From: an uncultured Methanosarcinales archaeon
Lineage (GTDB): Archaea > Nanobdellota > Nanobdellia > Woesearchaeales > CAZYIM01
Assembly (NCBI GenBank): GCA_964647565.1
Contig: CAZYIM010000019.1
Coordinates: 1 to 31,144, forward strand
Direction of reading: 5' to 3'
Length of the DNA: 31,144 bases
Shown here: positions 4,621 through 20,876 of the stretch, in pieces
Position numbering within the stretch: the first letter of the stretch is position 1
How the letters are laid out: each line of letters begins with the position of its first letter
Program-made: the position numbers and the translations under genes
The notes under the pieces: model-generated
Told to the model about the DNA's origin: nothing
The model's database searches: none
What the model saw: the letters and a program-made list of their open reading frames with translations, nothing else

Positions 4621-5397
4621 ATGAACATATTGAAGATAGCGCTAAACGCAGGAGCTCTTGGCAAGAAAGAGGGTCAGGAAGAGGCTCCAGACCATATCCT
4701 TAAGAGCACAGAAGAGCTATACATGAATGAGTCCAGGATATTACCTATTTTAAATATCGAAGATGTTGATGTTGACAACTCTGATTTTGAGGGATCGTGC
4801 AAAAAAATCTTTGAGAAGGTCAACGCGTTGGATAGCTTCTCAATATTGCTTGGAGGCGATCACTCGTTAACATATCCTGCTTTCAAGGCATTTGCTCAGA
4901 ACAATGACAATCCCGGATTGGTGATCTTTGATGCACATCCGGATCTTATGGATAATTTCAAGACTCATGAAGATTATCTGAAGTCATTGATTGAGGATAA
5001 GATCCTTAATCCTAAGAATGTTATCATTGTCGGTGTCAGAAACTGGGAGCAGTCAGAGATCGAGTATCTGAGAGACAAGAAGATCAAGTTCTTCACCATG
5101 AAGAATATCACAGAAGAGGGCATCCATGATATCAGCGATACTGTAATGAGTAATGCACGCAGATGGGGCTCACTCTATATCTCTATTGATATTGATGCAG
5201 TAGACCCTGCCTTTGCACCCGGCACAGGCCATATTGAACCTGGCGGTCTCAGCAGCAGGGAGCTTATCTATTTCTTGCAGCGATTAAAGAATCTGCAGAA
5301 CCTAAAGATGGCAGATATTGTAGAAGTGAATCCTAAAAAGGATGTCAATCAAATGACCTCCAAGCTGGCTGCCAAGATAATCTGGGAGCTGGGATAA
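4621..5397 (+). CDS. arginase/agmatinase (ureohydrolase) family protein
   Basis: Metal-binding motifs GGDHS, DAHPD and SIDIDAVDPAFAPGTG..EPGG, plus DIVEVNP. Confidence 0.9.
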   Translation: MNILKIALNAGALGKKEGQEEAPDHILKSTEELYMNESRILPILNIEDVDVDNSDFEGSCKKIFEKVNALDSFSILLGGDHSLTYPAFKAFAQNNDNPGLVIFDAHPDLMDNFKTHEDYLKSLIEDKILNPKNVIIVGVRNWEQSEIEYLRDKKIKFFTMKNITEEGIHDISDTVMSNARRWGSLYISIDIDAVDPAFAPGTGHIEPGGLSSRELIYFLQRLKNLQNLKMADIVEVNPKKDVNQMTSKLAAKIIWELG

Positions 5398-8187: not shown

Positions 8188-8249
8188 GTTTATCACCTGT
8201 TATCAATCTTTAATCATTAGTAAAGCAAGCATCTATTTATATATGGCAC

Positions 8250-8272
8250 TAAGCTCCAAGTGAGATTGAAGT
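8250..8272. promoter_or_regulatory. shared operator-like motif, copy A (upstream of the TATA-like box of the 8187 gene)
   Basis: TAAGCTCCAAGTGAGATTGAAGT; 21 of 23 positions match 13445-13467. Confidence 0.65.
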
Positions 8273-8300
8273 GATGCAAAGTTAATGAAAAAAATAACTG

Positions 8301-8418
8301 AAAATTAACAACAATAATGGCACAGACGCCCTCCTAGGAGTGCTATTCCACTTACCAGAACGCTATACAAAAAGTATAGCAACCTGTTAAGCTCCATCTG
8401 GCCATTGTTGTTAATTTT
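8301..8418 (-). ncRNA. structured three-way-junction element, long copy (RNA or ssDNA; family unknown)
   Basis: Minus strand: AAAATTAACAACAAT-GGCCAGAT-GGA-[GCTTA..CAGG..GCTATAC/GTATAGC..TCTG.TAAGT]-GGAATA-[GCACTCC TA GGAGGGC]-GTCTGTGCC-ATTATTGTTGTTAATTTT. Confidence 0.6.
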
Positions 8419-8433
8419 TTCTTTGGTAATCTA

Positions 8434-8516
8434 AAAATAGCAACATGGCCGGGCGAGGCAGAGCCGAGTAGGACTTTGCTTGCAAAGTCCGTCCGTGCCC
8501 TTATTGGTGCTATTTT
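8434..8516 (+). ncRNA. structured three-way-junction element, short copy 1
   Basis: AAAATAGCAACAT-GGCCGGGC-GA-[GGC AGA GCC]-GAGTA-[GGACTTTGC TT GCAAAGTCC]-GTCCGTGCC-CTTATTGGTGCTATTTT. Confidence 0.7.
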
Positions 8517-8542
8517 ATAAAAGGTATTTGTAACTCAGCTTA

Positions 8543-11500
8543 TCAATCATATATCGTTATTCCAGTACTTGCACTCCTTCCATTTATCTCGGGGGCATAC
8601 ATACAGTGGGCTTGAGCAGGCATTGCAACGTAAAGTCCTGGGAACTCAGCCCTTAGCTGGTATGTTATGTTTCGCTGGCCTTTGTTGAGCCTTGTGTAAA
8701 ACGTATCGACCTTCTCATCCCTTATTTCCTTGTTGCTATAGCCCCAATGCCTGTAATAGCTGTAGAAATCATTGATCTTGTCCTGGACAACCTCAGTTCC
8801 TGCAGGTATATAATCCTCTATGATGATATACTCATAGTCAGCATCCGAGTCTATAGTCAAGGTAACATTGAACTCATCACCAGCCTTTATGTTGTATTTA
8901 CTGTACTGCCTGGTAACTGTTATACCATTGCTGTCAGCGTTTATGTTCCGGCTCTTGACAAAATACTCAAGTTGTTTTGAGTAATATAACATTCCGCTGC
9001 CTTCCTTTTCTACCCTGATGACACTATAAGGTCTTGGATGTAGCTCTACTTTTCCATCATAGGTCATTACATTGTCCTTGGTAATCCGGTCCTCTTTTAT
9101 GAGCAGACCATCCTGATATATCCTAAAAGTATAGTCTGGATTCAGCTCACCAGAGACCATCATGTAATCTGTCAGTGCAAAGATTGCCTGGGCAGTATCC
9201 TTGGTAGAGTACCAGTGGTTACCTCGTCTGGTCCGTACAAGATAATTGACTGCCTTGGGTATCTTATTGGATTCAGGTTTTATCTTGATCAAAGCCCTCA
9301 TCACATAAGAAGTCGCCTCGACATTGTTGTATCTCCAGTGATATCTGCCACCTTCCCAGTTGCACTCTCGAGTATTACAATTAGCTGAATTTTCAAGTAG
9401 CTCAACAATCTCTGCAGCTTTTTGAGTGTCTCCAGAACGATGATATGCAAGAGCTAAAAGAGCTTTTCCATAGTCAGACATCTTATCCCTCTGTTTATAG
9501 ATCTTCTCTGGCTCTGCCATGCCATGCAAAGAAAGCACATAGTGGATGTATGCCCTGGTGTTGGGATCATCAACTCTCTTATCATGGTCTTTCAACCAGT
9601 CAAGACCCCTATTGATCCTCCAGTCATCAACCTCGAAGCGGCTGTTCTGGGCTTCTGTCAATCCGTAGACAACATATGCAGTCATGAAAGCATTGCCGTC
9701 TCCATATTTCCACCAGCCCCAGCTGCCATCGCCATTCTGCATGTCATATAGTCTTTCAAGACCTGCAACTATCATAGGCAAAAGCTCCTCTTTTAAGTCA
9801 TCACGCTCAAGGCCGAGGGTTTCAATAGCTCGCAATACAATGATGTCTGGTAAGAACCTGCTCATGGTCTGCTCAACACAGCCATGTGGGTAGCCGATCA
9901 GATATGGAAGCGAATCCAGTGCAAGTGACGCTATTGATGGCGACAGATAGAGATTGAATTCTGTGGCATCTGTAACCAACTCCCCATCCTGTATATTGAT
10001 GATAAGCTCTGTCAATGTGTCCACATTGCCTGCGTCATAATCATACTCCTTGACTCCGCTAGGCACAATAGGAATGGTCATCTCAACAGCATCAGATTCT
10101 TCATCTGTCAAACTGTACAATGTGGCTTTGGTTTCACAGCAGCCCATGACCTGGACCTTGAAATCAACTCGCTTGTCCTGGCCTGCCTGTACTGTAATGA
10201 TCTTGCTATTGGTCTGCTTAGCATCTAGAATATCATCAATCTCAAGATCAACCTTTACCTCTTTGTCATGAGGCAGGTAGTTGTGTACTACTGCAGATAT
10301 GGTCGCTTCATCTCCCTGCGTAAATGTCCTTGATGTCTCAAACCTGACAAGGACATTCTTTCTTGTGATGATTTTATTGATGATCTGACCGGAAAGCATA
10401 TCTGGTGTGTAGGCCTTTATGGTTGATCTCCAGGTTGTTAATGTATCAGGCAGTTCCACATCTAATGTGGCCATTCCATCTGAATCTGTTATCATGTCTG
10501 GTTTCCAGACAACAACATCAGGGAAGAACTTCCTGACTACTGGCTTGACATACTCCTCTGCCTGACCCCCGCTTCTCGGAGCTCCGCCCGCACCATCAGC
10601 CATCTCAGCCATAGGTGCGCTTTCTATTTCCTCTGCTATAGAATTAAAGCTACTTTTCTGCATTACCATGTCATCAGCATACATTCCGCCGGACATTCGC
10701 ATTGTGGACCTTGTTGCCAGTAGTAGGAAAGCAGCTACTAACAATAATATCAAAACACCAAGCACAACCCCCATAGTTATTGCCAGTTTCTTATGATAGG
10801 TCTTGGCAAGCATCACTATCAGGCCGATGAATACTGCCAGTATTAAAGGAACCCCTAGTATGAGGGGAATCAAGAATTCGGGTTCCCCAACAACAAAGGC
10901 CAATAAAATAGGCAGGAAAATCAACCAGAAACATGCTACTGGAATTCCTATTGCCCAGCCTGGATGTCCTGTCTTGGCGCAAAGCACAATTAACCAGATT
11001 ATGGCTGCGATTATTATCAAAGCTAAGACAACAAGCAGAGTGTAGGCCAACAATTCTCCAGGAGCATATTCTTTATGAGATTGGATATAAGGATTACGCC
11101 AGTATTGTCTTGATGAATACTTGGTATTGACATCATTACGCATGAAAGTATTTACCTTGGCAAAGATGTCGCCTGAGTTATCAGGAGCCAGGGCATATAT
11201 TGGTTCGTCAACCATGCCAAAGCTGAAGCTTGCCTTAACAGGATTATCCTGATGATCCACCATCTTAATGGTGAAATGAGCGGTATCTCCTGCACCATAA
11301 GTCTCCTGGTCTGGAGTTACTGTGATATTGATTATCTTGTCTTTTGGAAGAACTATCATCTGCTGGGTTGCCCGAAGAATAGTATTATTTATCAGGAAGC
11401 TTACAGAAATATAGACATTAGGCTCATATTCAGACTTGATTGGCACCTGTACTGTCTTGGTGTAGGTGTCAAGAAAGACCGGAAAGACATCATAAACAGC

Positions 11501-13369
11501 GTCTCCTTCAACTGTAAGGATCCCATACGCATCCTTAATAGGAGATTCAATGACTATGTTGGCAATGTCGCCAGCATCATATGCCTGTTTGTCAGGCTCC
11601 AGATTAAGATTTCTATAGAAGTTATTGTTCACATCATAGACTCTTAAACGAAACTCAGTTGTGGCTGTATTACCCTTCTCATCCTTGCCTGATATTGTGA
11701 TTACATATCTGCCGTATTCCGGCGGATTGAAGTTAAAGGCTCCCTTGCCATCAACTGTTGCAGCAGTGCCCTCGACAATGGTGTCTCTCTTTTCCTTGAA
11801 AGACCAACCAGTGTAATAGGTTCGCTCAACCTTAACATCAAGATTAGCACTGACAGGAACATCATAGTAGTCCTTGGTCTCAAGATTTATCAATACATTC
11901 TCATTGATACCATAGTAGTATTTATCTGAACTGGCTCGAATATAATACAAAGCAGGGATTACTGTAATAGCTGCTGTATTGGAGACCTCTTTTCTAGCCA
12001 GGTCTGTAACCTTGGCTTCGACATAGTATTTCATAAGATAATCATTAGTTTCTGTCTTGAATCTGATGACTGCCTTTCCGTTTTCATCAGTTGTGGCCCG
12101 ACCTTCAGATATCATATCCCCAACGCCACCGTAATAAGGAACATAGTCATTATAAGGTGCATATAGGCAGCGGAAGTATCCTCCCCAACAGGGGCGTCGG
12201 TAGTAGCTCTTGAAAACCTGGTATTCTATGTTAGCGTTCTTGACAGGCTCGCCAAAGTAGTATTTGGATTCAAGATCCACTTCAACCTCCTGGCCTCCCA
12301 GGTAGACACTGTCCTCAGTATTCATGTTAACTTCATACTCAGGTTTTCGATATTCCTCAACCTTGAAACTATGGTAAAATCTCCTTCTTTCACCCAGTTG
12401 GAACTCTATCCTATAATTGCCCAGGTCTGGCTCTTCTTCAAGTGTGAACTTGTCAAAAATAGCACCATATTCATCTGTTAATAGGCTATTCTCGTAAACC
12501 TTGTCATTCTTGCTGTCGTAGACAACAAAATCAACATAATTGCCCTGCACCAAGTCCTTCTGCCGTTCATTGGTCCAGAAGATGGCCTTGAAATAGACAG
12601 TCTGGTTGGGCCTGTAGATTGGCCTGTCTGTATAGAAATAGGATTCATAAGCATCCCACCTGTCATCATCACGATAACTGTTACTAAAGTCCATAAAGGT
12701 TGATTCCCCTCTATAGTTAACAAGCATAAGAGAATAATCTGTTGCAGTAACAATACTGGCAATACCAAACTGATCTGTCTTAGTGCCCTTGATAAGATCT
12801 ATTTTGTTATAAAGCAAAACCTCTGCACCTTCAAGAGGCATGCCTGTTTTCTTATTAATAGCGAAGACTGTAATACCATTCTCAGAATGCTTGGCAACAA
12901 GGGAAATATCAGATACATGGAAGATATCCCTGTCGCTAAGAGTATTATATGTACCTTCAACTGCATATAGACCTTTGTCAAGAGTCAATGTCTTTAAACT
13001 ATTAAGCACATAATAGGTGTATTTTTCTTTTTCATAGCGATATTTCTTGGCCTTCTCATCATACCAGCTGGATATGGTACGCTCACCCTCTTTTTGCTTG
13101 CCAGTGAATGTCCATGATTGCACAGGAGTGATTGATCTACGGTAATCCTCACGTTCAAAATAATATTTCGCAAAGCTTTCGCTAGGTATACGGTACAAAT
13201 TCATATTTGCATGGGGCGTATCTCCATTAATGTTTAGAGTTATCTGGCCATTAGTATTCTCATTGGCATAGACATTGATGCGGTAAGACTTTTCATAGCT
13301 GCTCACAAAAAAAACCAGCAGCAGAAACACAAATATCAGAATTATTGGAAAAAGAGTTTTTTTATTCAT
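8543..13369 (-). CDS. alpha-2-macroglobulin family thioester protein with an internal multi-TM insert
   Basis: YTDRPIYRPNQTV (MG2), VEEYRKPEY, VRKFFPDVVVW, LPDTLTTW, thioester motif YPHGCVEQT, QNGDGSWGWW, WYSTKDT and MYAPEING. N-terminal signal peptide. A GGTGA SD favours ATG 13369 (track start 13378). Confidence 0.95.
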   Translation of the reverse strand: MNKKTLFPIILIFVFLLLVFFVSSYEKSYRINVYANENTNGQITLNINGDTPHANMNLYRIPSESFAKYYFEREDYRRSITPVQSWTFTGKQKEGERTISSWYDEKAKKYRYEKEKYTYYVLNSLKTLTLDKGLYAVEGTYNTLSDRDIFHVSDISLVAKHSENGITVFAINKKTGMPLEGAEVLLYNKIDLIKGTKTDQFGIASIVTATDYSLMLVNYRGESTFMDFSNSYRDDDRWDAYESYFYTDRPIYRPNQTVYFKAIFWTNERQKDLVQGNYVDFVVYDSKNDKVYENSLLTDEYGAIFDKFTLEEEPDLGNYRIEFQLGERRRFYHSFKVEEYRKPEYEVNMNTEDSVYLGGQEVEVDLESKYYFGEPVKNANIEYQVFKSYYRRPCWGGYFRCLYAPYNDYVPYYGGVGDMISEGRATTDENGKAVIRFKTETNDYLMKYYVEAKVTDLARKEVSNTAAITVIPALYYIRASSDKYYYGINENVLINLETKDYYDVPVSANLDVKVERTYYTGWSFKEKRDTIVEGTAATVDGKGAFNFNPPEYGRYVITISGKDEKGNTATTEFRLRVYDVNNNFYRNLNLEPDKQAYDAGDIANIVIESPIKDAYGILTVEGDAVYDVFPVFLDTYTKTVQVPIKSEYEPNVYISVSFLINNTILRATQQMIVLPKDKIINITVTPDQETYGAGDTAHFTIKMVDHQDNPVKASFSFGMVDEPIYALAPDNSGDIFAKVNTFMRNDVNTKYSSRQYWRNPYIQSHKEYAPGELLAYTLLVVLALIIIAAIIWLIVLCAKTGHPGWAIGIPVACFWLIFLPILLAFVVGEPEFLIPLILGVPLILAVFIGLIVMLAKTYHKKLAITMGVVLGVLILLLVAAFLLLATRSTMRMSGGMYADDMVMQKSSFNSIAEEIESAPMAEMADGAGGAPRSGGQAEEYVKPVVRKFFPDVVVWKPDMITDSDGMATLDVELPDTLTTWRSTIKAYTPDMLSGQIINKIITRKNVLVRFETSRTFTQGDEATISAVVHNYLPHDKEVKVDLEIDDILDAKQTNSKIITVQAGQDKRVDFKVQVMGCCETKATLYSLTDEESDAVEMTIPIVPSGVKEYDYDAGNVDTLTELIINIQDGELVTDATEFNLYLSPSIASLALDSLPYLIGYPHGCVEQTMSRFLPDIIVLRAIETLGLERDDLKEELLPMIVAGLERLYDMQNGDGSWGWWKYGDGNAFMTAYVVYGLTEAQNSRFEVDDWRINRGLDWLKDHDKRVDDPNTRAYIHYVLSLHGMAEPEKIYKQRDKMSDYGKALLALAYHRSGDTQKAAEIVELLENSANCNTRECNWEGGRYHWRYNNVEATSYVMRALIKIKPESNKIPKAVNYLVRTRRGNHWYSTKDTAQAIFALTDYMMVSGELNPDYTFRIYQDGLLIKEDRITKDNVMTYDGKVELHPRPYSVIRVEKEGSGMLYYSKQLEYFVKSRNINADSNGITVTRQYSKYNIKAGDEFNVTLTIDSDADYEYIIIEDYIPAGTEVVQDKINDFYSYYRHWGYSNKEIRDEKVDTFYTRLNKGQRNITYQLRAEFPGLYVAMPAQAHCMYAPEINGRSASTGITIYD

Positions 13370-13444
13370 GGGCATCACCTTGATTTAGTTATTTATAAAA
13401 CTTGTTTAGAATTTGTAAGTGATGCTATTATAAATAGTCAGGAG

Positions 13445-13467
13445 TAAGGTTCAAGTGAGATTGAAGT
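13445..13467. promoter_or_regulatory. shared operator-like motif, copy B (upstream of the macroglobulin TATA-like box)
   Basis: TAAGGTTCAAGTGAGATTGAAGT contains a perfect TTCAA-N6-TTGAA palindrome. Confidence 0.65.
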
Positions 13468-13505
13468 TAAAAAAATTTAAAAAGGGAAAACAACTATAAT
13501 CTATC

Positions 13506-13859
13506 ATGGCTGAACTGGGAATAATAGAGTCATTTCATGCAATACATGGAAGCAAACCGCACGAACATGATTTCAAGGTAGAAGTTGTCCTTAAAGGATA
13601 TATTGACCAAACCACACACAGACTAGAGGGTATTGACCACCATGATCTGATTTCTGATATCAAAAAGATAATAGCAGGGCTGGAAAATCAGAATCTCAGA
13701 GAAATCTTAACAAAAGAGGACTACAACTCCTCGGGAAACGAAGCTATTGCCCTCTATTTCTTAAAAAAACTAATAAAAAAATTCCCAATAAAATACGTTC
13801 AGATTTGGGAGACCCAAAACAGGTATGCCCGTGTCTTTTCTGAAGATATTACCCAATGA
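13506..13859 (+). CDS. queD: 6-pyruvoyl-tetrahydropterin synthase/QueD-like T-fold protein
   Basis: Zn ligands in FHAIH...HEHDFKVEV, plus SGNEAIA and C-terminal WETQNRYA. No catalytic Cys is visible, so the exact activity is uncertain. Confidence 0.7.
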   Translation: MAELGIIESFHAIHGSKPHEHDFKVEVVLKGYIDQTTHRLEGIDHHDLISDIKKIIAGLENQNLREILTKEDYNSSGNEAIALYFLKKLIKKFPIKYVQIWETQNRYARVFSEDITQ

Positions 13860-14301
13860 CTGCAGCAATGTCTTCATCGAGATCTTCGATGTATCCTTCG
13901 CATTTGTTGTCAGTACATTTACAGGCAGTAATTTGTGGAAAACCACAGACTCCTGCAAGGCCACTGTCAGCGCATATTTGAGTGACTAATTCAGGGTTGA
14001 CTTCTGCATCCTGGTTCACACATTCTGGATAGTATCCACAACAGTTGTGCACATCCTTAATCTCACAATCCTCATCAGTCTCGCAGGAAAAATCAATTGT
14101 TTCCCTGTAGTCATCCAGCTTTGTGATCATATCATCATCTTTATCTGGCGTTTTAGGCGGAGTAGGTGGCTTGTTCGGGTTATCAGAACCATCATCATAG
14201 ATGATGTCAGGATTATCATCAGCAGGCCCTTCATTTGCTTTGCAAGACATCAACAACGCTGCTACTAACAGCAATAAAACTAGAATTATTATTCGTTTCA
14301 T
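13849..14301 (-). CDS. lipoprotein with acidic/Pro linker and a 10-Cys domain
   Basis: MKR plus hydrophobic stretch and LMSC lipobox, PPTPP linker, then CETDEDC..NCCGYYPECVN..C..VCGF..CKC...C. Confidence 0.8.
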   Translation of the reverse strand: MKRIIILVLLLLVAALLMSCKANEGPADDNPDIIYDDGSDNPNKPPTPPKTPDKDDDMITKLDDYRETIDFSCETDEDCEIKDVHNCCGYYPECVNQDAEVNPELVTQICADSGLAGVCGFPQITACKCTDNKCEGYIEDLDEDIAAVIG

Positions 14302-14356
14302 AAATAAAGAAAAGAAGAACTAATATTTAAATTTTTCAATAGTGTCAATGATGTAA

Positions 14357-14707
14357 CTATGAGGACAGCAATCTAATTGCTATACACAAAATCCCGTATT
14401 TTTTTTCATCCTCTGCAGAATAGATTTTGTGAAGTGATTCAGTAAATACCTGTTTATCATGATCTTCAGGATATCCAAAGGAACTCATAGGTAAGGCATT
14501 TAGCAATTCCTCAAACGTCGCAAATCTCTGAAGACCTATGACTTCTATCTGCAGGGTTTCATCCATATCAGGCAGCTTAGAAAAGATTATTTTATCACCA
14601 ATCTTAATTCTTTGTCTTTTTTTATCAAAAAGCCTTATTTCAATTTTTTTAAGTCCTGCCTTTATCCTATCGAAGGGCGATTCGTACAACCGCATATGAT
14701 GTTCCAT
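14357..14707 (-). CDS. ASCH/PUA-like domain protein
   Basis: HMRL...FDRIKAGLKKIEIRLFDKKRQRIKIGDKIIF, FATFEEL and YSAEDEKKYG. Start taken at ATG 14707. Confidence 0.88.
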   Translation of the reverse strand: MEHHMRLYESPFDRIKAGLKKIEIRLFDKKRQRIKIGDKIIFSKLPDMDETLQIEVIGLQRFATFEELLNALPMSSFGYPEDHDKQVFTESLHKIYSAEDEKKYGILCIAIRLLSS

Positions 14708-14770
14708 GAAAACAGAGAACAAGCAATCTATTATTAAAGATGTCGAAAAAAAGTTAATAAAAATATTGTT

Positions 14771-16039
14771 TCAAATCCGACCCTTGAACCTTTCTGCTTC
14801 CAATATCCTCTTTATAGCCACGATGTATGCTGCAGTCCTGAAATCAAAGCCAAGCTCTTCAACATAGTTGTAGATGATGTAAAATGAGCTTTTCATCACC
14901 ACCTCAAGCTTTTGAAGGATCTCTTTTTCAGGCCAGTAATAGCCTTGATTGTTCTGCACCCACTCAAAATAGCTTACAGTAACTCCACCTGCATTTGCAA
15001 GGATATCAGGGATGATGATCTTCTTCTTTTTGATCAGTTTCTTTTCAGCCTCATTGGTAATTGGACCATTTGCAAGTTCCAGGATTATTTCAGCCTTGAC
15101 TCTTCCTGCATTGTCAGGCGTTATAACATTCTCAAGAGCCGCAGGTATCAACACATCCACTTTGAGCTCTAAGAGCTTGGCATTTGTTATCTCTTTAGCA
15201 TTCTTAAAGCCTTCAACTGCCCTGGTCATCTGCTTGTGGTTGATCAAAGAAGTTAACTTGAGTCCGTTTTCATCCAGAACACCACTTCTTGAATCGCTGA
15301 CAGCTACAATCTTGTATCCCCATTTGTTCAGGATCTTTGCAACATTCATTCCCGCGTTTCCAAAACCCTGGATTGCGACTGTGGTCTCTTCGGGATTTCT
15401 CTTAAGTACTTTCATAAGTTCCCTAAGAACATATGCACCTCCCATTGCAGTTGAAAAGCCTCTTCCTTCGCTGCCACCTGTTGCTATTGGTTTGCCCGTA
15501 ATCATACCGGGTAAATGCTCTCCTTTGATCTTGTTGAACTCATCAAGCATCCAGGCCATGACTTGAGGATCAGTGTAGACATCAGGTGCAGGAATGTCTT
15601 TTGTAGGCCCGATAAATGGATGTATATGTTTGATGAATTCCCTGCTAACCCTTTCAAGATCCTGTTTGGACAGCTCTTTAGGATTAACTTCAACACCACC
15701 CTTGGCGCCACCATAGGGTATGTTTACTACTGCACATTTCAATGTCATCCAAAATGCTAGAGCCTGTACCTCGTTGAGATCAACAGCAGGATGGAAGCGT
15801 ATACCCCCTTTAGTGGGACCTCTAGCATCATTGTACTGAACCCTGTAGCCACTTAGCATCTTAACAGTGCCATCACTAAGCTTGACTGGAAAGTTCACCT
15901 GCAATATCCTGTTTGGCGCCATCAGCGTCTTTGCATCTTGATCTGAAATTTGGCATATATCACCACCTTTTTCATTGCATGTCTTAATCACTTCTTTTAA
16001 TCTGTTTAAAGAGTCCTTGAATGGATTTATTCTTGTCAT
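14771..16039 (-). CDS. gdhA: glutamate dehydrogenase (Glu/Leu/Phe/Val dehydrogenase family)
   Basis: GPTKGGIRFHP, GGAKGG, DIPAPDV, QGFGNAG, ELANGP and PDILANAGGVTVSYFEWVQN. Confidence 0.96.
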   Translation of the reverse strand: MTRINPFKDSLNRLKEVIKTCNEKGGDICQISDQDAKTLMAPNRILQVNFPVKLSDGTVKMLSGYRVQYNDARGPTKGGIRFHPAVDLNEVQALAFWMTLKCAVVNIPYGGAKGGVEVNPKELSKQDLERVSREFIKHIHPFIGPTKDIPAPDVYTDPQVMAWMLDEFNKIKGEHLPGMITGKPIATGGSEGRGFSTAMGGAYVLRELMKVLKRNPEETTVAIQGFGNAGMNVAKILNKWGYKIVAVSDSRSGVLDENGLKLTSLINHKQMTRAVEGFKNAKEITNAKLLELKVDVLIPAALENVITPDNAGRVKAEIILELANGPITNEAEKKLIKKKKIIIPDILANAGGVTVSYFEWVQNNQGYYWPEKEILQKLEVVMKSSFYIIYNYVEELGFDFRTAAYIVAIKRILEAERFKGRI

Positions 16040-16947
16040 TGTTGATCACCTTTTTTGATTTCATGGTATATGTCATAAGCAGCTGTTGCCCCATGAGCAG
16101 CAGCAGTGACAATCTGCTTGGGAATTGTGTAGATCACATCTCCTGCAGCATATATACCTTCAACATTAGTCTTTTGATGTATATCTGTGATGATATATCC
16201 TCCTTCGTCTGTCTCGATACCAAGACTTTCAATAAAGGCCTTATTTGGCACAGATCCAATCTGCACAAACAAGCCTTCAATCTCCAGTTCCCTGCCTGAT
16301 TCTAAGGTTGCCTTTTGCAGGAACTTATCTCCTGACAGCTCAACAACCTTGTCTTTGTAGATAACTTCTATCTTAGGATTGTTCTCCACTGCATGCACCC
16401 ATGCAACTTCGCCCCTGAGTTTTTCTTTTCTATAAATAATATAGACCTTCTTGGCATATTCTGTCAACAATAGAGCGGCTGTAGTCGCTGCATCGCTGCC
16501 TCCAACCACTGCAACATTCTTGTCCTTAAAAAATGCCGCGTCACAAGTAGCACAATAACTTACACCCTTACCAAAGAACTGGTCCTCAGTCGGGATGTTC
16601 ATCTTTCTTTTCTCTGTGCCAATAGCCAATATTACAAATCTGGCCAAAAAGTTCTTATCAGAATTGGTTTGGACATGAAACTTCCCGTCCTGTTTCTCAA
16701 CCTTCACAACTTCTTCATAAAGGATTGGAACGTCAAAGGACTTCACCTGATCTTCCATCTTACCCATTAGCTCCATTCCTGGAATCTCCTGATAGCTTGG
16801 GAAATTACAGATCTTATGGGCAGTTGCTGCAAGTCCGCCTGGTTCTCTTGAGATAACCAGTGTCTTCATCTTATACCTACCACTGTACAATGCTGCTGTA
16901 AGACCGCCAGGTCCCCCACCGATGATTATAATATCATATTCTTCCAT
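16036..16947 (-). CDS. trxB: thioredoxin-disulfide reductase
   Basis: GGGPGG FAD motif, GVSYCATCD, VVGGSD and YAAGDV. Stop overlaps the gdh start (ATGA). Probable ATG 16947. Confidence 0.95.
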   Translation of the reverse strand: MEEYDIIIIGGGPGGLTAALYSGRYKMKTLVISREPGGLAATAHKICNFPSYQEIPGMELMGKMEDQVKSFDVPILYEEVVKVEKQDGKFHVQTNSDKNFLARFVILAIGTEKRKMNIPTEDQFFGKGVSYCATCDAAFFKDKNVAVVGGSDAATTAALLLTEYAKKVYIIYRKEKLRGEVAWVHAVENNPKIEVIYKDKVVELSGDKFLQKATLESGRELEIEGLFVQIGSVPNKAFIESLGIETDEGGYIITDIHQKTNVEGIYAAGDVIYTIPKQIVTAAAHGATAAYDIYHEIKKGDQQ

Positions 16948-16995
16948 TTTAGCCCCCAAGAGAGTACAATAAGGTTACATATTAAATAGTTTACG

Positions 16996-17079
16996 AAAGT
17001 TAACAACAAGGCCGGGCGAGCCGAAGGGGAGTAGGACTTTCACAGAAAGTCCGTCCGTGCCCTCTTTGTTGTTAATTTT
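16996..17079 (+). ncRNA. structured three-way-junction element, short copy 2
   Basis: AAAGTTAACAACAA-GGCCGGGC-GA-[GCC GAA GGG]-GAGTA-[GGACTTTC ACA GAAAGTCC]-GTCCGTGCC-CTCTTTGTTGTTAATTTT. Confidence 0.7.
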
Positions 17080-18590: not shown

Positions 18591-20053
18591 AAATCCAATG
18601 GGAACTGATCTATAAAGAGAGGGATGCAAATCTATTTCCATTCTATGTCTTTGCAAAGCCTTTTGGTACTATGATAAAAGACTTGGTAGGCAGGAATCTA
18701 TCACCCATTGCATTAGTGTTCTCAAAAAAAGGTGTGGAGTACTATGTAAACCACGAGGAATTCAAGAGATTGGGTGAAAAGGTATTTGAACTTTATATGG
18801 ATAAAAATTTCTATATCAACATGGTGGAGAGAATCGACGAATATACCTTGAAGATCACAGAATTTTGCGAGGATATCGAGAAACTTGATCTTGATAGTCT
18901 TAATGAATCTGATCTCAAGATGCATGTTGAAAAGCTCTGCATGTTTAATGAAGAGCTTGACAGGTGGGGCCAGCTAACCAGTATTTTGGAGTATGGCAAA
19001 AACAGCTTTCTTACAGACGGCTTGATGAAGGAGATTGATAAACAGATCAAAGAAAAAAAGCTTGATCTGAATAAAGTCGAAGTGTCAAAGCTCATGTCCC
19101 AACCTGTAAGAAGCTCATATTTTAGGGATGAGAAAATAGCCCTTATGAAACTTGCTGTGAAAGTACAACAAAATAATCTTAAACCAGAGAATATAATAGC
19201 TGAATTAGAGGACATAAAAAACAAGTACTGTTGGATCCTCTTTGGCTATGTTGGTCCTGCAATAACAGTTGAAGATTTAAAGAAAGAAATCTCTTCAATG
19301 GTTGAGAACAAGGATCTTGAAAAAGAGCTTGAAGAGAAACAACTGGAGCTTGATACGACCAAGAAAGCCCAACAAGAGATGGAAAATAAATTAGATCTTA
19401 ATGAATATTTCAAGATGCGTTTTAGAATAGTCAGGGAACAGACTTTCTATAAGGAACATAGGAAGGAAGTGTTATTCCATAGTTTCTATGTCTGTGAGTT
19501 AATACATGAAGCTTTAGCTAAAAGATATAAGCTGGACAAGCATATTTATAGATTCATACTGCCGAATGAGTATCATGGAGATCTTAAGTTGCTATATGAA
19601 CAAAGAAAGAAGCTTTGCATTTATTATATCGATGATGATCATGACCATGTTCTTGTCGGGGATGATGCAGAGAAGATTTTGGCACAAATCAATACAACTG
19701 AAAAAAAGAATCTTAAAAGAGTTAAAGAACTTAAAGGGCAATGTGCATTTGCAGGTAAGGTAAAAGGTAAAGTAAAGATTATCATGGGCATTAACCATCT
19801 TGAAAAACTTGAGAAAGGAGATATTTTAGTCTCCTACTCAACCAATCCTCAGATGACTATTGCCATGTACAAAGCAGGCGCAGTCATAACAGAACAGGGT
19901 GGTATTGCATCGCATGCAGCCATTGTCTCCAGGGAAATGAAGATTCCTTGTTTAGTGGGTGTACAAGGAGCCACAGAAACTCTAAGCGATGGCGACAAAG
20001 TTGAAGTTGATGCTACAAATGGTATAATAAAAATAATAGAGAAAGCGGATTAA
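18584..20053 (+). CDS. protein with a C-terminal PEP-utilising swivelling phospho-His domain
   Basis: LKGQCA..G.VKGKVKII...GDILV..STNP...AVITEQGGIASHAAIVSREMKIPCLVG. Helical N-terminal region; no ATP-grasp domain seen. Overlaps the HTH gene. Confidence 0.88.
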   Translation: MVKIQWELIYKERDANLFPFYVFAKPFGTMIKDLVGRNLSPIALVFSKKGVEYYVNHEEFKRLGEKVFELYMDKNFYINMVERIDEYTLKITEFCEDIEKLDLDSLNESDLKMHVEKLCMFNEELDRWGQLTSILEYGKNSFLTDGLMKEIDKQIKEKKLDLNKVEVSKLMSQPVRSSYFRDEKIALMKLAVKVQQNNLKPENIIAELEDIKNKYCWILFGYVGPAITVEDLKKEISSMVENKDLEKELEEKQLELDTTKKAQQEMENKLDLNEYFKMRFRIVREQTFYKEHRKEVLFHSFYVCELIHEALAKRYKLDKHIYRFILPNEYHGDLKLLYEQRKKLCIYYIDDDHDHVLVGDDAEKILAQINTTEKKNLKRVKELKGQCAFAGKVKGKVKIIMGINHLEKLEKGDILVSYSTNPQMTIAMYKAGAVITEQGGIASHAAIVSREMKIPCLVGVQGATETLSDGDKVEVDATNGIIKIIEKAD

Positions 20054-20876
20054 TTCTCAGTAGCCAACTCATCCATGGCTTCTGTCTGTAATTCAGCAAA
20101 ATCCTTTTTCTTGGGAAGATGAATATTGATCAGACCGAAGTGTTTTCTTTGGCGTATATCGATCTTCCGGGCATAGTCCAGATGCAATAGCGGAATGAAA
20201 GTATAAACCTTGTCCTCTTTGGCATCAGAAGGTATCAATTGTTCAAAAGTCAACTTAATAGTGCTTTCTTTCTTGAAATATACCTTTACTTTTTCATAGA
20301 CCTCTTTCATAACCAAGGTTATATCTTTAGGCTTGTCAGGCACTTCAGGCGGCGCAACAGTATTTTTCAACAGTCTATTACGCTTATCTTCTACATCCAG
20401 AGCCTTTCCAAAGCCTCAACAAGATCATAGACAGATACCTTTCTCTTTCTAGGCTGAGGTGTTCTTGGATATATCTTTGGTTTATTCAAGTCTTCCTTAG
20501 CTTTCTCTGCACCCATAGCAATATCCTGCAGCTCAGCTAAAAGATCCATTGGCTCCTCTGCACCCGCCAAGAGATTATCAAGCATTGTTATGTCTTCCTG
20601 CAGCAGCCTGTTGGACTTGATCTTAAGAAGTAATGCAGCTGCCAGAACCATCTTACCTGATATCCGAAAGTTCATCTCTTTTAACTTCCTGAGATTCTTG
20701 ATAAAGTTCTTGGCTATTAAAGAGACATCAATATCCCACGGATTCATCTGCTCAGCATTGATCATATCGTAGATGACATTCTGCCAAGTAAGCTCGTCTT
20801 CCTCAAATAGAAGCCCGAATATCTTATCAGACTGTTCTACCTGTTTATCTGTAGGTGGCTTTCTTCTCCGCGCCAT
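20050..20876 (-). pseudogene. scpA: segregation/condensation protein A (kleisin), split by a 1-nt frameshift near 20405
   Basis: N-part: MNPWDIDV, SGKMVLAAALLLKIKS, RKVSVYDLVEALE. C-part: TFEQL...VYTFIPLLHL...IDIRQ..HFGLI. Adding one A (GAAAGG to GAAAAGG) joins them as EALEKALDVEDKRNRLLKN. Confidence 0.85.

Follow-up and report, generated by a model that had tools for sequence, protein, structure and literature searches.

Three elements in a 31,144-nt stretch of archaeal DNA (hereafter, the window), which is contig C19 of a host genome that we call G000 (2.68 Mb, 86 contigs, 38% GC, 86.9% complete), are members of a large, non-coding, structure-conserving family of interspersed repeats in Woesearchaeota-type (DPANN) archaea. 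The family folds into a three-way junction, and this fold is under selection on one strand. A sequence-only reading of the window had placed three such elements at these sites and with these stems, and the sequence agrees with it. It had also proposed a covariance-model search of the genome and named a chance local duplication as the competing account; a model built from 15 short G000 copies (R1) found 29 places in G000 at E ≤ 0.01, far beyond three copies, and the size of the family, its presence in many genomes and its covariation all speak against such a duplication. For the sample of the phylum described below, a broader model (R2) was used.

A strand-specific three-way junction

All copies are variations on one architecture, in which an A/T-rich outer stem leads through a small asymmetric internal loop to a sequence-conserved stem of 8 bp (P1) that contains a bulged U as well as a conserved G-U pair. 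P1 opens into a three-way junction, of which one side is GA and the other GAGUA, and which bears two variable arms, P2 and P3. The element is 85–125 nt long, or up to ~280 nt with nested hairpin modules, and comes in three size classes around the common core, P2 being a 3-bp hairpin, a ~42-nt arm or an arm of at least 85 nt. Extra hairpin modules are placed between the outer stem and P1 or within P3 and bring the length to 220–280 nt, with the outer-stem types unchanged; these expanded copies contain GNRA-type loops.

Copy 1 of the window is a long form of 122 nt on the minus strand (8301-8422; 50.9 bits with R1, 75.9 bits with R2). Its outer stem pairs 8405-8414 with 8305-8314, and its P1, at the limits of a regular-expression match (8319-8403), pairs the 5′ strand GGCCAGAT (8396-8403) with GTCTGTGCC (8319-8327), that is, GTCTG-T-GCC with a single bulged T. 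The expanded P2 arm of 43 nt (8350-8392), a long type present in at least eight other G000 copies, is flanked by GGA (8393-8395) and GGAATA (8344-8349), and sequence and fold agree on a P3 hairpin GCACTCC-TA-GGAGGGC at 8328-8343. Copies 2 and 3 are short forms on the plus strand, of 89 nt (8429-8517; covariance-model match of 86.1 bits) and 88 nt (16992-17079; 87.3 bits), which share an 8-bp P1, GGCCGGGC/GTCCG-T-GCC, a P2 hairpin of 9 nt and a P3 hairpin of 19–20 nt that abuts the 3′ strand of P1. In copy 2, the outer stem (8434-8442/8508-8516) encloses a core at 8447-8499, made up of P1 (8447-8454/8491-8499, with the bulged T), GA (8455-8456), P2 (8457-8465), GAGTA (8466-8470) and P3 (8471-8490). 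The outer stem of copy 3, supported by sequence and fold, pairs the 5′ strand TTAACAACAA (17000-17009) with 17066-17075 and is followed by TTTT (17076-17079); its core (17010-17061) consists of P1 (17010-17017/17053-17061), GA (17018-17019), P2 (17020-17028), GAGTA (17029-17033) and P3 (17034-17052).

The sense strands of the three window copies fold better than shuffled sequences (z-scores of −7.1, −3.3 and −5.8 with RNA parameters, and −8.5, −4.0 and −4.9 with DNA parameters), and each folds better than its complement with both parameter sets. For copy 1, the minimum-energy fold is the three-way junction with RNA and with DNA parameters; for copy 2, the DNA-parameter minimum is exactly P1/P2/P3, and the RNA fold favours an alternative inner pairing. 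The compensatory stem changes first noticed among the three copies extend to every helix of the family. When the structure was imposed on a MAFFT alignment of 15 G000 copies, 86.6% of cells were paired, compared to 70.4% with shuffled and ~42% with slid partners, and 19 of 31 pairs had changed on both sides. Among 41 copies from many genomes, 90% of cells were paired and 27 of 31 pairs had changed on both sides, and among 109 copies, again from many genomes, these values were 95.0% (vs 73.7% shuffled and 36–54% slid) and 30 of 31, with none of 500 shuffles matching the observed value on any of five measures; both of these larger alignments were fitted to a covariance model and are biased towards the structure. 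The paired cells of the 109 copies include 195 G-U or U-G and 21 A-C or C-A combinations, and the fold therefore belongs to one single strand rather than to a double-stranded palindrome, as had been argued from G-T pairs in the window. Taken together, the 95% pairing, the double-sided changes at 30 of 31 pairs and the excess of G-U over A-C establish a fold that is real and strand-specific.

Across the same 109 copies, the near-invariant core reads GGC, G, GA, AgUAG, CGUC and GCC, conservation reaching ≥95% at GGC, G, G, A, UAG, CGUC and GCC. The stems are retained, with P1 99% paired, P3 96.5% paired and the end, or outer, stem paired in 92% of cells; at one of the P1 pairs, 75 of 107 distinct rows have G-U and 30 have A-U. 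The tight loops described for the window recur as well: C-GNA-G and C-GNNA-G dominate P2, the short copies having mostly C-GAA-G, C-GTA-G or C-GTTA-G (85 of the 109 rows parsed). Loops of this kind are very stable as DNA mini-hairpins, and they would, along with the DNA-parameter folds, lean towards DNA as the folded molecule, while the U-run polarity described below and the GNRA-type loops of the expanded copies lean towards RNA. GA/GA around P2 might be read as a k-turn: its topology fits a k-junction, but a 3-nt bulge is not present.

The element had been reported to match no known riboswitch or ribozyme, and Rfam 15 at gathering threshold likewise returned no match in the whole window; with permissive settings, the best match in 8200-8600 had E = 0.84, far under the cut-off, and 13 loci of relatives (E ≤ 1) yielded only a nearby tRNA and a weak antisense Plastid-ycf2 match to the same sequence. 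No tRNA was detected in the window by ARAGORN. A disguised housekeeping RNA was considered and rejected, as G000 encodes its 5S, signal recognition particle (SRP) and RNase P RNAs at other places, and what these have in common with the element is limited to words of ≤9 nt; the 9-mer GAAAGTCCG is common to RNase P CR-I and copy 3 only, and P3 varies. Full-text literature searches, in the result listings and the opening lines of abstracts, gave no published description of such a repeat.

The family in the host genome and beyond

Within G000, a strict regular expression matched 16 copies and a looser one ~25, the latter adding chance matches. The gene for RNase P RNA is ~100 nt away from one expanded copy of 263 nt (contig C4, 43876-44138), which lies beside C4:43480-43776. 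Short copies with a 9-nt P2 can contain a minimal open reading frame (ORF) of 8 codons (ATG...TAG), such as ATG GCC AGG CGA GCC GAA GGC GAG TAG at C3:100750, which ends at the junction TAG; the equivalent regions of the window are 8445-8471 and 17008-17034, copy 3 having AAG for ATG. This candidate was rejected because the frame is lost when P2 is 10 nt, and the mini-ORF is probably meaningless.

The family is carried by 10 of 41 relatives (G000 included), all of one order and each from a different family, and by 18 of the 151 genomes in the phylum sample (R2; G000 included), all of the same order, the other 133 being without a match. Between 1 and at least 15 copies were found per carrier in this sample, and these copy numbers are lower bounds, with 23 candidates scored per genome. 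An exact-pattern scan of species-representative genomes gave at least 120 stretches; among the 80 matches listed, the titles of 56 name Woesearchaeota or Nanoarchaeota, a single metagenome-assembled genome (MAG) accounting for 33 of these and a second for 11. Three of the matches listed are titled Methanosarcinales, yet score as family members with R2; the loci L065, L115 and L117, under "uncultured Methanosarcinales" titles, hold AT-rich, full-scoring copies of 59.8–86.3 bits. Another 21 of the 80, which were not scored with the model, lie in GC-rich bacterial DNA without an outer stem and are taken as chance matches. For a viral origin, the exact pattern, and only this, was compared with IMG/VR and had 0 matches. 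Two genomes of one genus carry one copy each, at unrelated loci and with different sequence. G000 itself, at 2.68 Mb, is unusually large for its order, sampled relatives having 0.6–2.1 Mb.

Placement, doublets and possible marks of movement

All 30 G000 copies are intergenic, except for two doubtful ORF overlaps. By our own tally, 13 of them are sense and 6 antisense in tandem contexts, 9 lie in divergent and 2 in convergent spacers; for 55 loci of other genomes, from crude ORF calls and with GC-rich loci dropped, the counts were 13 sense, 19 antisense, 6 convergent, 3 divergent and 14 undecided. Neither set displayed an orientation bias relative to genes, and no coherent set of neighbours was found, the adjoining genes being unrelated housekeeping genes. 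Because orientation is roughly even, the family is not a simple cis-regulator or riboswitch, in line with the sequence-only reading, which had argued against a simple riboswitch from two antisense copies among the three. These are copies 2 and 3: all four flanking genes in the window lie on the minus strand, copies 1 and 2 being flanked by an alpha-2-macroglobulin-like gene and a 454-aa gene without assigned identity (Pfam), and copy 3 lying between the genes for thioredoxin reductase and thioredoxin (Pfam identities), antisense to both. The first of these neighbours (8543-13378, minus strand) encodes a 1611-aa alpha-2-macroglobulin-like protein with MG2, A2M, bait region, TED and bMG10 domains. 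The rest of the window consists of ordinary chromosomal genes; among them, two adjacent minus-strand ORFs (20050-20370 and 20391-20876) match ScpA (PF02616), in its C-terminal and its N-terminal part, respectively, and may represent a split or frameshifted scpA.

Co-oriented upstream genes in G000 mostly stop 0–53 nt before the element, and several copies start directly after a neighbour's stop codon. Downstream of 12 of the 30 G000 copies, a co-oriented ATG ORF begins 52–78 nt past the element, and most of these gaps hold, by eye, a TATA-like box ~25–45 nt past the element and ~27–32 nt before the ATG, which suggests that the downstream genes are leaderless, with a promoter starting just beyond the element. 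A 5′ A-run of ≥4 is present in 75 of 109 copies and a 3′ T-run in 73 (≥4) or 51 (≥5) of them, with the reverse polarity in only 23 and 28 of 109. Either strand therefore reads a hairpin and then a T-run, a polarity that points to a link with transcription; a hairpin followed directly by a T-run, as in a terminator, is found in 73 of the 109. A promoter at a fixed distance was not detected among the 89 copies with enough flank (≤0.14 bit at every position from −70 to −1; 20 of the 109 were dropped for short flanks), and for 16 of 29 G000 copies the 70 nt upstream contain no TATA-like hexamer. In a high-copy Woesearchaeota MAG, a second small repeat, ACAA(C)AAAAAGAGCCTGCCGGCCTGTTAAAAAA, lies downstream of many copies, ~40–90 nt past the element (L053, L056, L083, L095, L121, L080, L092 and others); its other strand has the terminator-like look of a GC hairpin and then a T-run. 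The 3′ flank ATTAACATAGTAAAAAG is also common to several copies.

Copies 1 (left) and 2 (right) of the window form a 5′-to-5′ doublet, their 5′ ends 6 nt apart, and this arrangement is recurrent. All nine close pairs in the phylum-sample list are (−)(+), 5′-to-5′, with spacings from a 5-nt overlap to a 39-nt gap, and another set of loci scored with R2 adds two further 5′-to-5′ pairs (gaps of 14 and 51 nt) and one (+)(−) pair 147 nt apart. Doublet partners belong to different subfamilies, and in each of two genomes, G100 and G101, all three doublets combine one and the same pair of subfamilies. Those of G101 all pair the same two outer-stem types, and two match along both halves (89% and 71% identity); in G100, two match along both halves (81% and 90%) and the third shares the right half, so that left halves are 81–89% and right halves 71–90% identical in the matched pairs. 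Because its halves match across loci, the doublet behaves as a unit, the six doublets of G100 and G101 not being independent events. Further traces are 5′ remnants, composed of the 5′ strand of the outer stem and the first P1 bases. Stacks of one to three such remnants occur immediately upstream of full copies in a high-copy MAG and, in a single case, in G000 (C3 ~4706-4740); the 45 nt displayed contained no 3′ remnants.

Empty sites at orthologous loci, which it had been proposed to seek, were not found: contigs from four DNA runs had no joint at the elements, a metagenome search gave no match to the 454-aa neighbour and only a 38%-identical relative of the thioredoxin reductase, and between G126 and its congener G082 the left gene was orthologous and the right flank was not, which leaves no clean empty site. 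A composite transposon with cargo was rejected, the three (−)...(+) pairs 4–6 kb apart enclosing housekeeping genes (topoisomerase I, LSm, S-layer protein and Lrp/AsnC). Likewise rejected was the insertion of a core into pre-existing AT-rich palindromes: in G000, 0 of 15 outer-stem arm types formed an inverted repeat whose spacer was ≤30 nt, and, since the arms are never coreless short-spacer palindromes, the outer stem is part of the element and not of its target. The ends of the element always pair, through several discrete outer-stem sequence types, some of which are common to several genomes. Flanking repeats of ≥5 nt that might represent a target-site duplication (TSD) were seen in 12 of 89 copies, where shuffling of the partners would lead one to expect 11.3.

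No enzyme emerged as a consistent partner, and neither of the co-occurring enzymes that had been suggested, a HUH/Y1 enzyme or a tyrosine recombinase, held up. The Y1/HUH profile PF01797 had no match in G000 or in three of five high-copy relatives (G020, G100 and G101, which are 96–100% complete with 13–15 element matches each) and was present in the other two; reverse transcriptase (RVT_1) was similarly without a match in G000 and three of the five and present in two, and the TnpB signature PF07282 had no match in G000. DDE_Tnp_1 was found in three of the five high-copy relatives, with no match in G100 or G101, so that G101, a 100% complete genome, has none of the three enzymes. The sole DDE_Tnp_1 match in G000 is an intact insertion sequence (IS) of the IS5 family at C3:36515-37404, on a contig rich in element copies, with an ORF of ~318 aa, a 9-bp target duplication GTTTTTTAT and perfect 14-bp terminal inverted repeats (TIRs), GGTTGTGTAGAAAA, that do not resemble the element ends. 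No ORF family with more than 3 members was found in G000. As for tyrosine recombinases, their counts do not follow copy number, G006 having 13 integrase matches and 0 elements and G020 having 2 and at least 12, and this partner was rejected. In two low-copy genomes, an element lies near a small tyrosine recombinase gene, either 160 nt upstream or ~1 kb downstream of it (G015: L029, C25, 527-1339 and 1501-1606; G038: L035, C24, 2-457 and 1493-1649); the adjacency is not general, and it was not seen in G000 or the other carriers examined.

Interpretation and rival explanations

We tentatively favour, at somewhat under an even chance, a repeat similar to repetitive extragenic palindromic (REP) sequences and REPINs, which would spread by a strand-specific mechanism and, once placed, would probably act as transcript-end punctuation. 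Copies would have multiplied and moved at the DNA level through an intermediate in which one specific strand folds as a single strand, and a putative protein would use the conserved core of P1 and junction as its handle. Placed copies, with a stop codon before them and a promoter after, would probably be transcribed only by read-through, and the hairpin with its U-run could then end or insulate transcripts in both directions. We infer this mode of spread, the protein handle and the role as terminator or stabiliser; termination or insulation is plausibly an effect rather than a proven purpose, because copies also occur in divergent spacers and in both orientations.

Several observations weigh against this REP-like reading. 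No mobilising enzyme, empty site or excision junction was found, and for this reason we infer movement from the distribution of the copies only. The retention of the stems fits a host function of each copy at least as well as a decaying selfish element. There is no evident enrichment in contexts that need a terminator, as judged from raw counts without background frequencies, and 9 of 30 G000 copies lie in divergent spacers, where a terminator is not needed. Roughly half the copies run antisense to their neighbours, where read-through would give the poorer-folding strand, and a terminator alone leaves the elaborate conserved junction unexplained.

Known systems offer partial parallels. REP/REPINs and their RAYT transposases are the closest in habit: REPs are also short, non-coding, intergenic and hairpin-forming, number dozens per genome without TSD, have strand-specific mismatches and frequent inverted doublets that act as units, and may have side effects as terminators or mRNA stabilisers. 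Unlike them, the present family has a three-way junction, a conserved inner core and a variable outer stem, its doublets join two different subfamilies 5′-to-5′ instead of forming a single long hairpin, its host is archaeal, and Y1/RAYT was not found in most of the carriers examined. The Correia elements of Neisseria, ERIC, RUP/BOX and the SM MITEs (miniature inverted-repeat transposable elements) of Sulfolobus are likewise small and non-autonomous, with pairing ends and positions near promoters or terminators; they are co-transcribed and can influence the expression of neighbouring genes. However, they have sequence-conserved TIRs, TSD and a cognate transposase, none of which is established here, and it is this family that shows compensatory change in every helix. 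Integron attC sites are similarly set by the fold of one strand, with an outer stem, an unpaired spacer, an inner stem with an extrahelical base and a branchable variable end, but they lie beside an integrase in same-orientation arrays that flank cassettes, whereas the copies described here are dispersed among housekeeping genes in either orientation; as for the attC boxes (RYYYAAC/GTTRRRY), the outer stem has AAC/GTT triplets, and the flanking consensus is a misfit by eye. With the T- or Y-shaped hairpin telomeres of parvoviruses, such as the inverted terminal repeat (ITR) of adeno-associated virus (AAV), the likeness does not go beyond the architecture, in which two small hairpin arms cap a long stem. 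The AAV ITR is recognised as folded single-stranded DNA by a nicking enzyme; here, by contrast, there is no viral context, the exact pattern is absent from IMG/VR, and a Rep/HUH gene was not found. In archaea, RNA polymerase terminates at oligo-T and does not need a hairpin. About two-thirds of the copies do have a T-run of ≥4 at the 3′ end of each strand and follow stop codons, as oligo-T terminators would, but a conserved three-way junction is not required for archaeal termination.

A more unusual reading, and an unlikely one, is a new class of mobile structured nucleic-acid element, a Y-shaped module spreading through the Woesearchaeota without a known transposase, reverse transcriptase or HUH enzyme, whose core would be the site for an undiscovered structure-specific recombinase or a catalytic RNA or DNA core, and whose 5′-to-5′ doublet would be the replicative unit. 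The copies could instead be punctuation selected by the host, that is, two-way terminators, insulators or protectors of mRNA 3′ ends with a host RNA-binding protein, kept locus by locus and no longer, or never, mobile. The A-run/T-run polarity on both strands, the position 0–53 nt after stop codons and ~60–80 nt before the next start codon, the stems intact in nearly all copies, and the lack of a transposase partner and TSD all fit such a role. We nonetheless consider it unlikely given a patchy distribution with 133 of 151 sampled genomes lacking a match, copy numbers from 0 to more than 30, non-homologous loci within one genus, the 5′ remnants and recurrent doublets, and the divergent-spacer copies, which have no need of a terminator. 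A family of independently transcribed, trans-acting small RNAs with a protein-binding or catalytic junction core is less probable again. Its fold on one strand, conserved G-U, tandem G-A motif, AGUA-type junction and GNRA-type loops would be in keeping with an RNA, its orientation is independent of the neighbouring genes, and the 3′ U-run would suit its own terminator; against this, there is no conserved fixed-distance promoter, more than half of the G000 copies (16 of 29) lack a TATA-like hexamer and some begin at a neighbour's stop codon, doublets 1–6 nt apart or overlapping by 5 nt leave no space for two promoters, and no obvious single-stranded guide region varies among copies.

The classical routes of DNA transposition fare worse, and each fails a defining test. 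That the element is a folded single-stranded substrate of a HUH/Y1 enzyme (RAYT, or the TnpA of IS200/IS605) seems doubtful: strand-specific hairpins without TSD, P2 loops of a kind stable as DNA, inverted doublets that resemble REPINs and the exact three-way junction given by DNA parameters for copy 2 would all be expected, yet PF01797 has no match in G000, G020, G100 or G101, the TnpB signature is missing from G000, and the A-run/T-run polarity has no part in such a model. The lack of PF01797 and PF07282 matches in G000 speaks equally against a PATE derived from IS200/IS605. That the element is a classical MITE, which an IS5-family DDE transposase (IS903 group) moves in trans, is highly improbable; the TIR-like terminal complementarity, the IS on a copy-rich contig of G000 and the DDE_Tnp_1 gene in three of five high-copy relatives are outweighed by flanking repeats at chance frequency, IS ends unlike those of the element, outer stems that vary between copies while the inner core is conserved, two high-copy genomes (G100 and G101) without DDE_Tnp_1 and no G000 ORF family above three members. 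Equally far-fetched is a retro-mobile or self-cleaving RNA, similar to short interspersed elements (SINEs) or retrozymes, or a ligand-sensing cis-regulator. The conserved junction core with few invariant unpaired bases might be read this way, and the G-A pairs flanking P2 recall the context of hammerhead stem II, but RVT_1 is lacking in G000 and three of five high-copy relatives, Rfam gave no ribozyme or riboswitch, the likeness to the tRNA, 5S, SRP and RNase P RNAs of G000 stops at words of ≤9 nt, and neither a gene association nor an orientation bias was found; in addition, the remnants are 5′ parts, whereas reverse transcription would leave 3′ parts.

DPANN genomes are tiny and compact, yet some hold dozens of these elements, with ~30 in the 2.7-Mb G000 and at least 33 in one MAG. 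Genomes with many copies occur in oxygen-deficient marine water columns. An elaborate, strand-specific fold is kept through compensatory change without the usual hallmarks of transposition, which would imply either a new mobilisation mechanism that acts on folded single strands or the marking of transcript ends by RNA and protein, the latter in archaea with leaderless genes and minimal spacers. The family already yields more than 100 diverse sequences, enough for a new Rfam entry, structure probing and protein pull-downs, and either outcome, if true, would add something new to the biology of a large section of the archaeal tree that has not been cultured.

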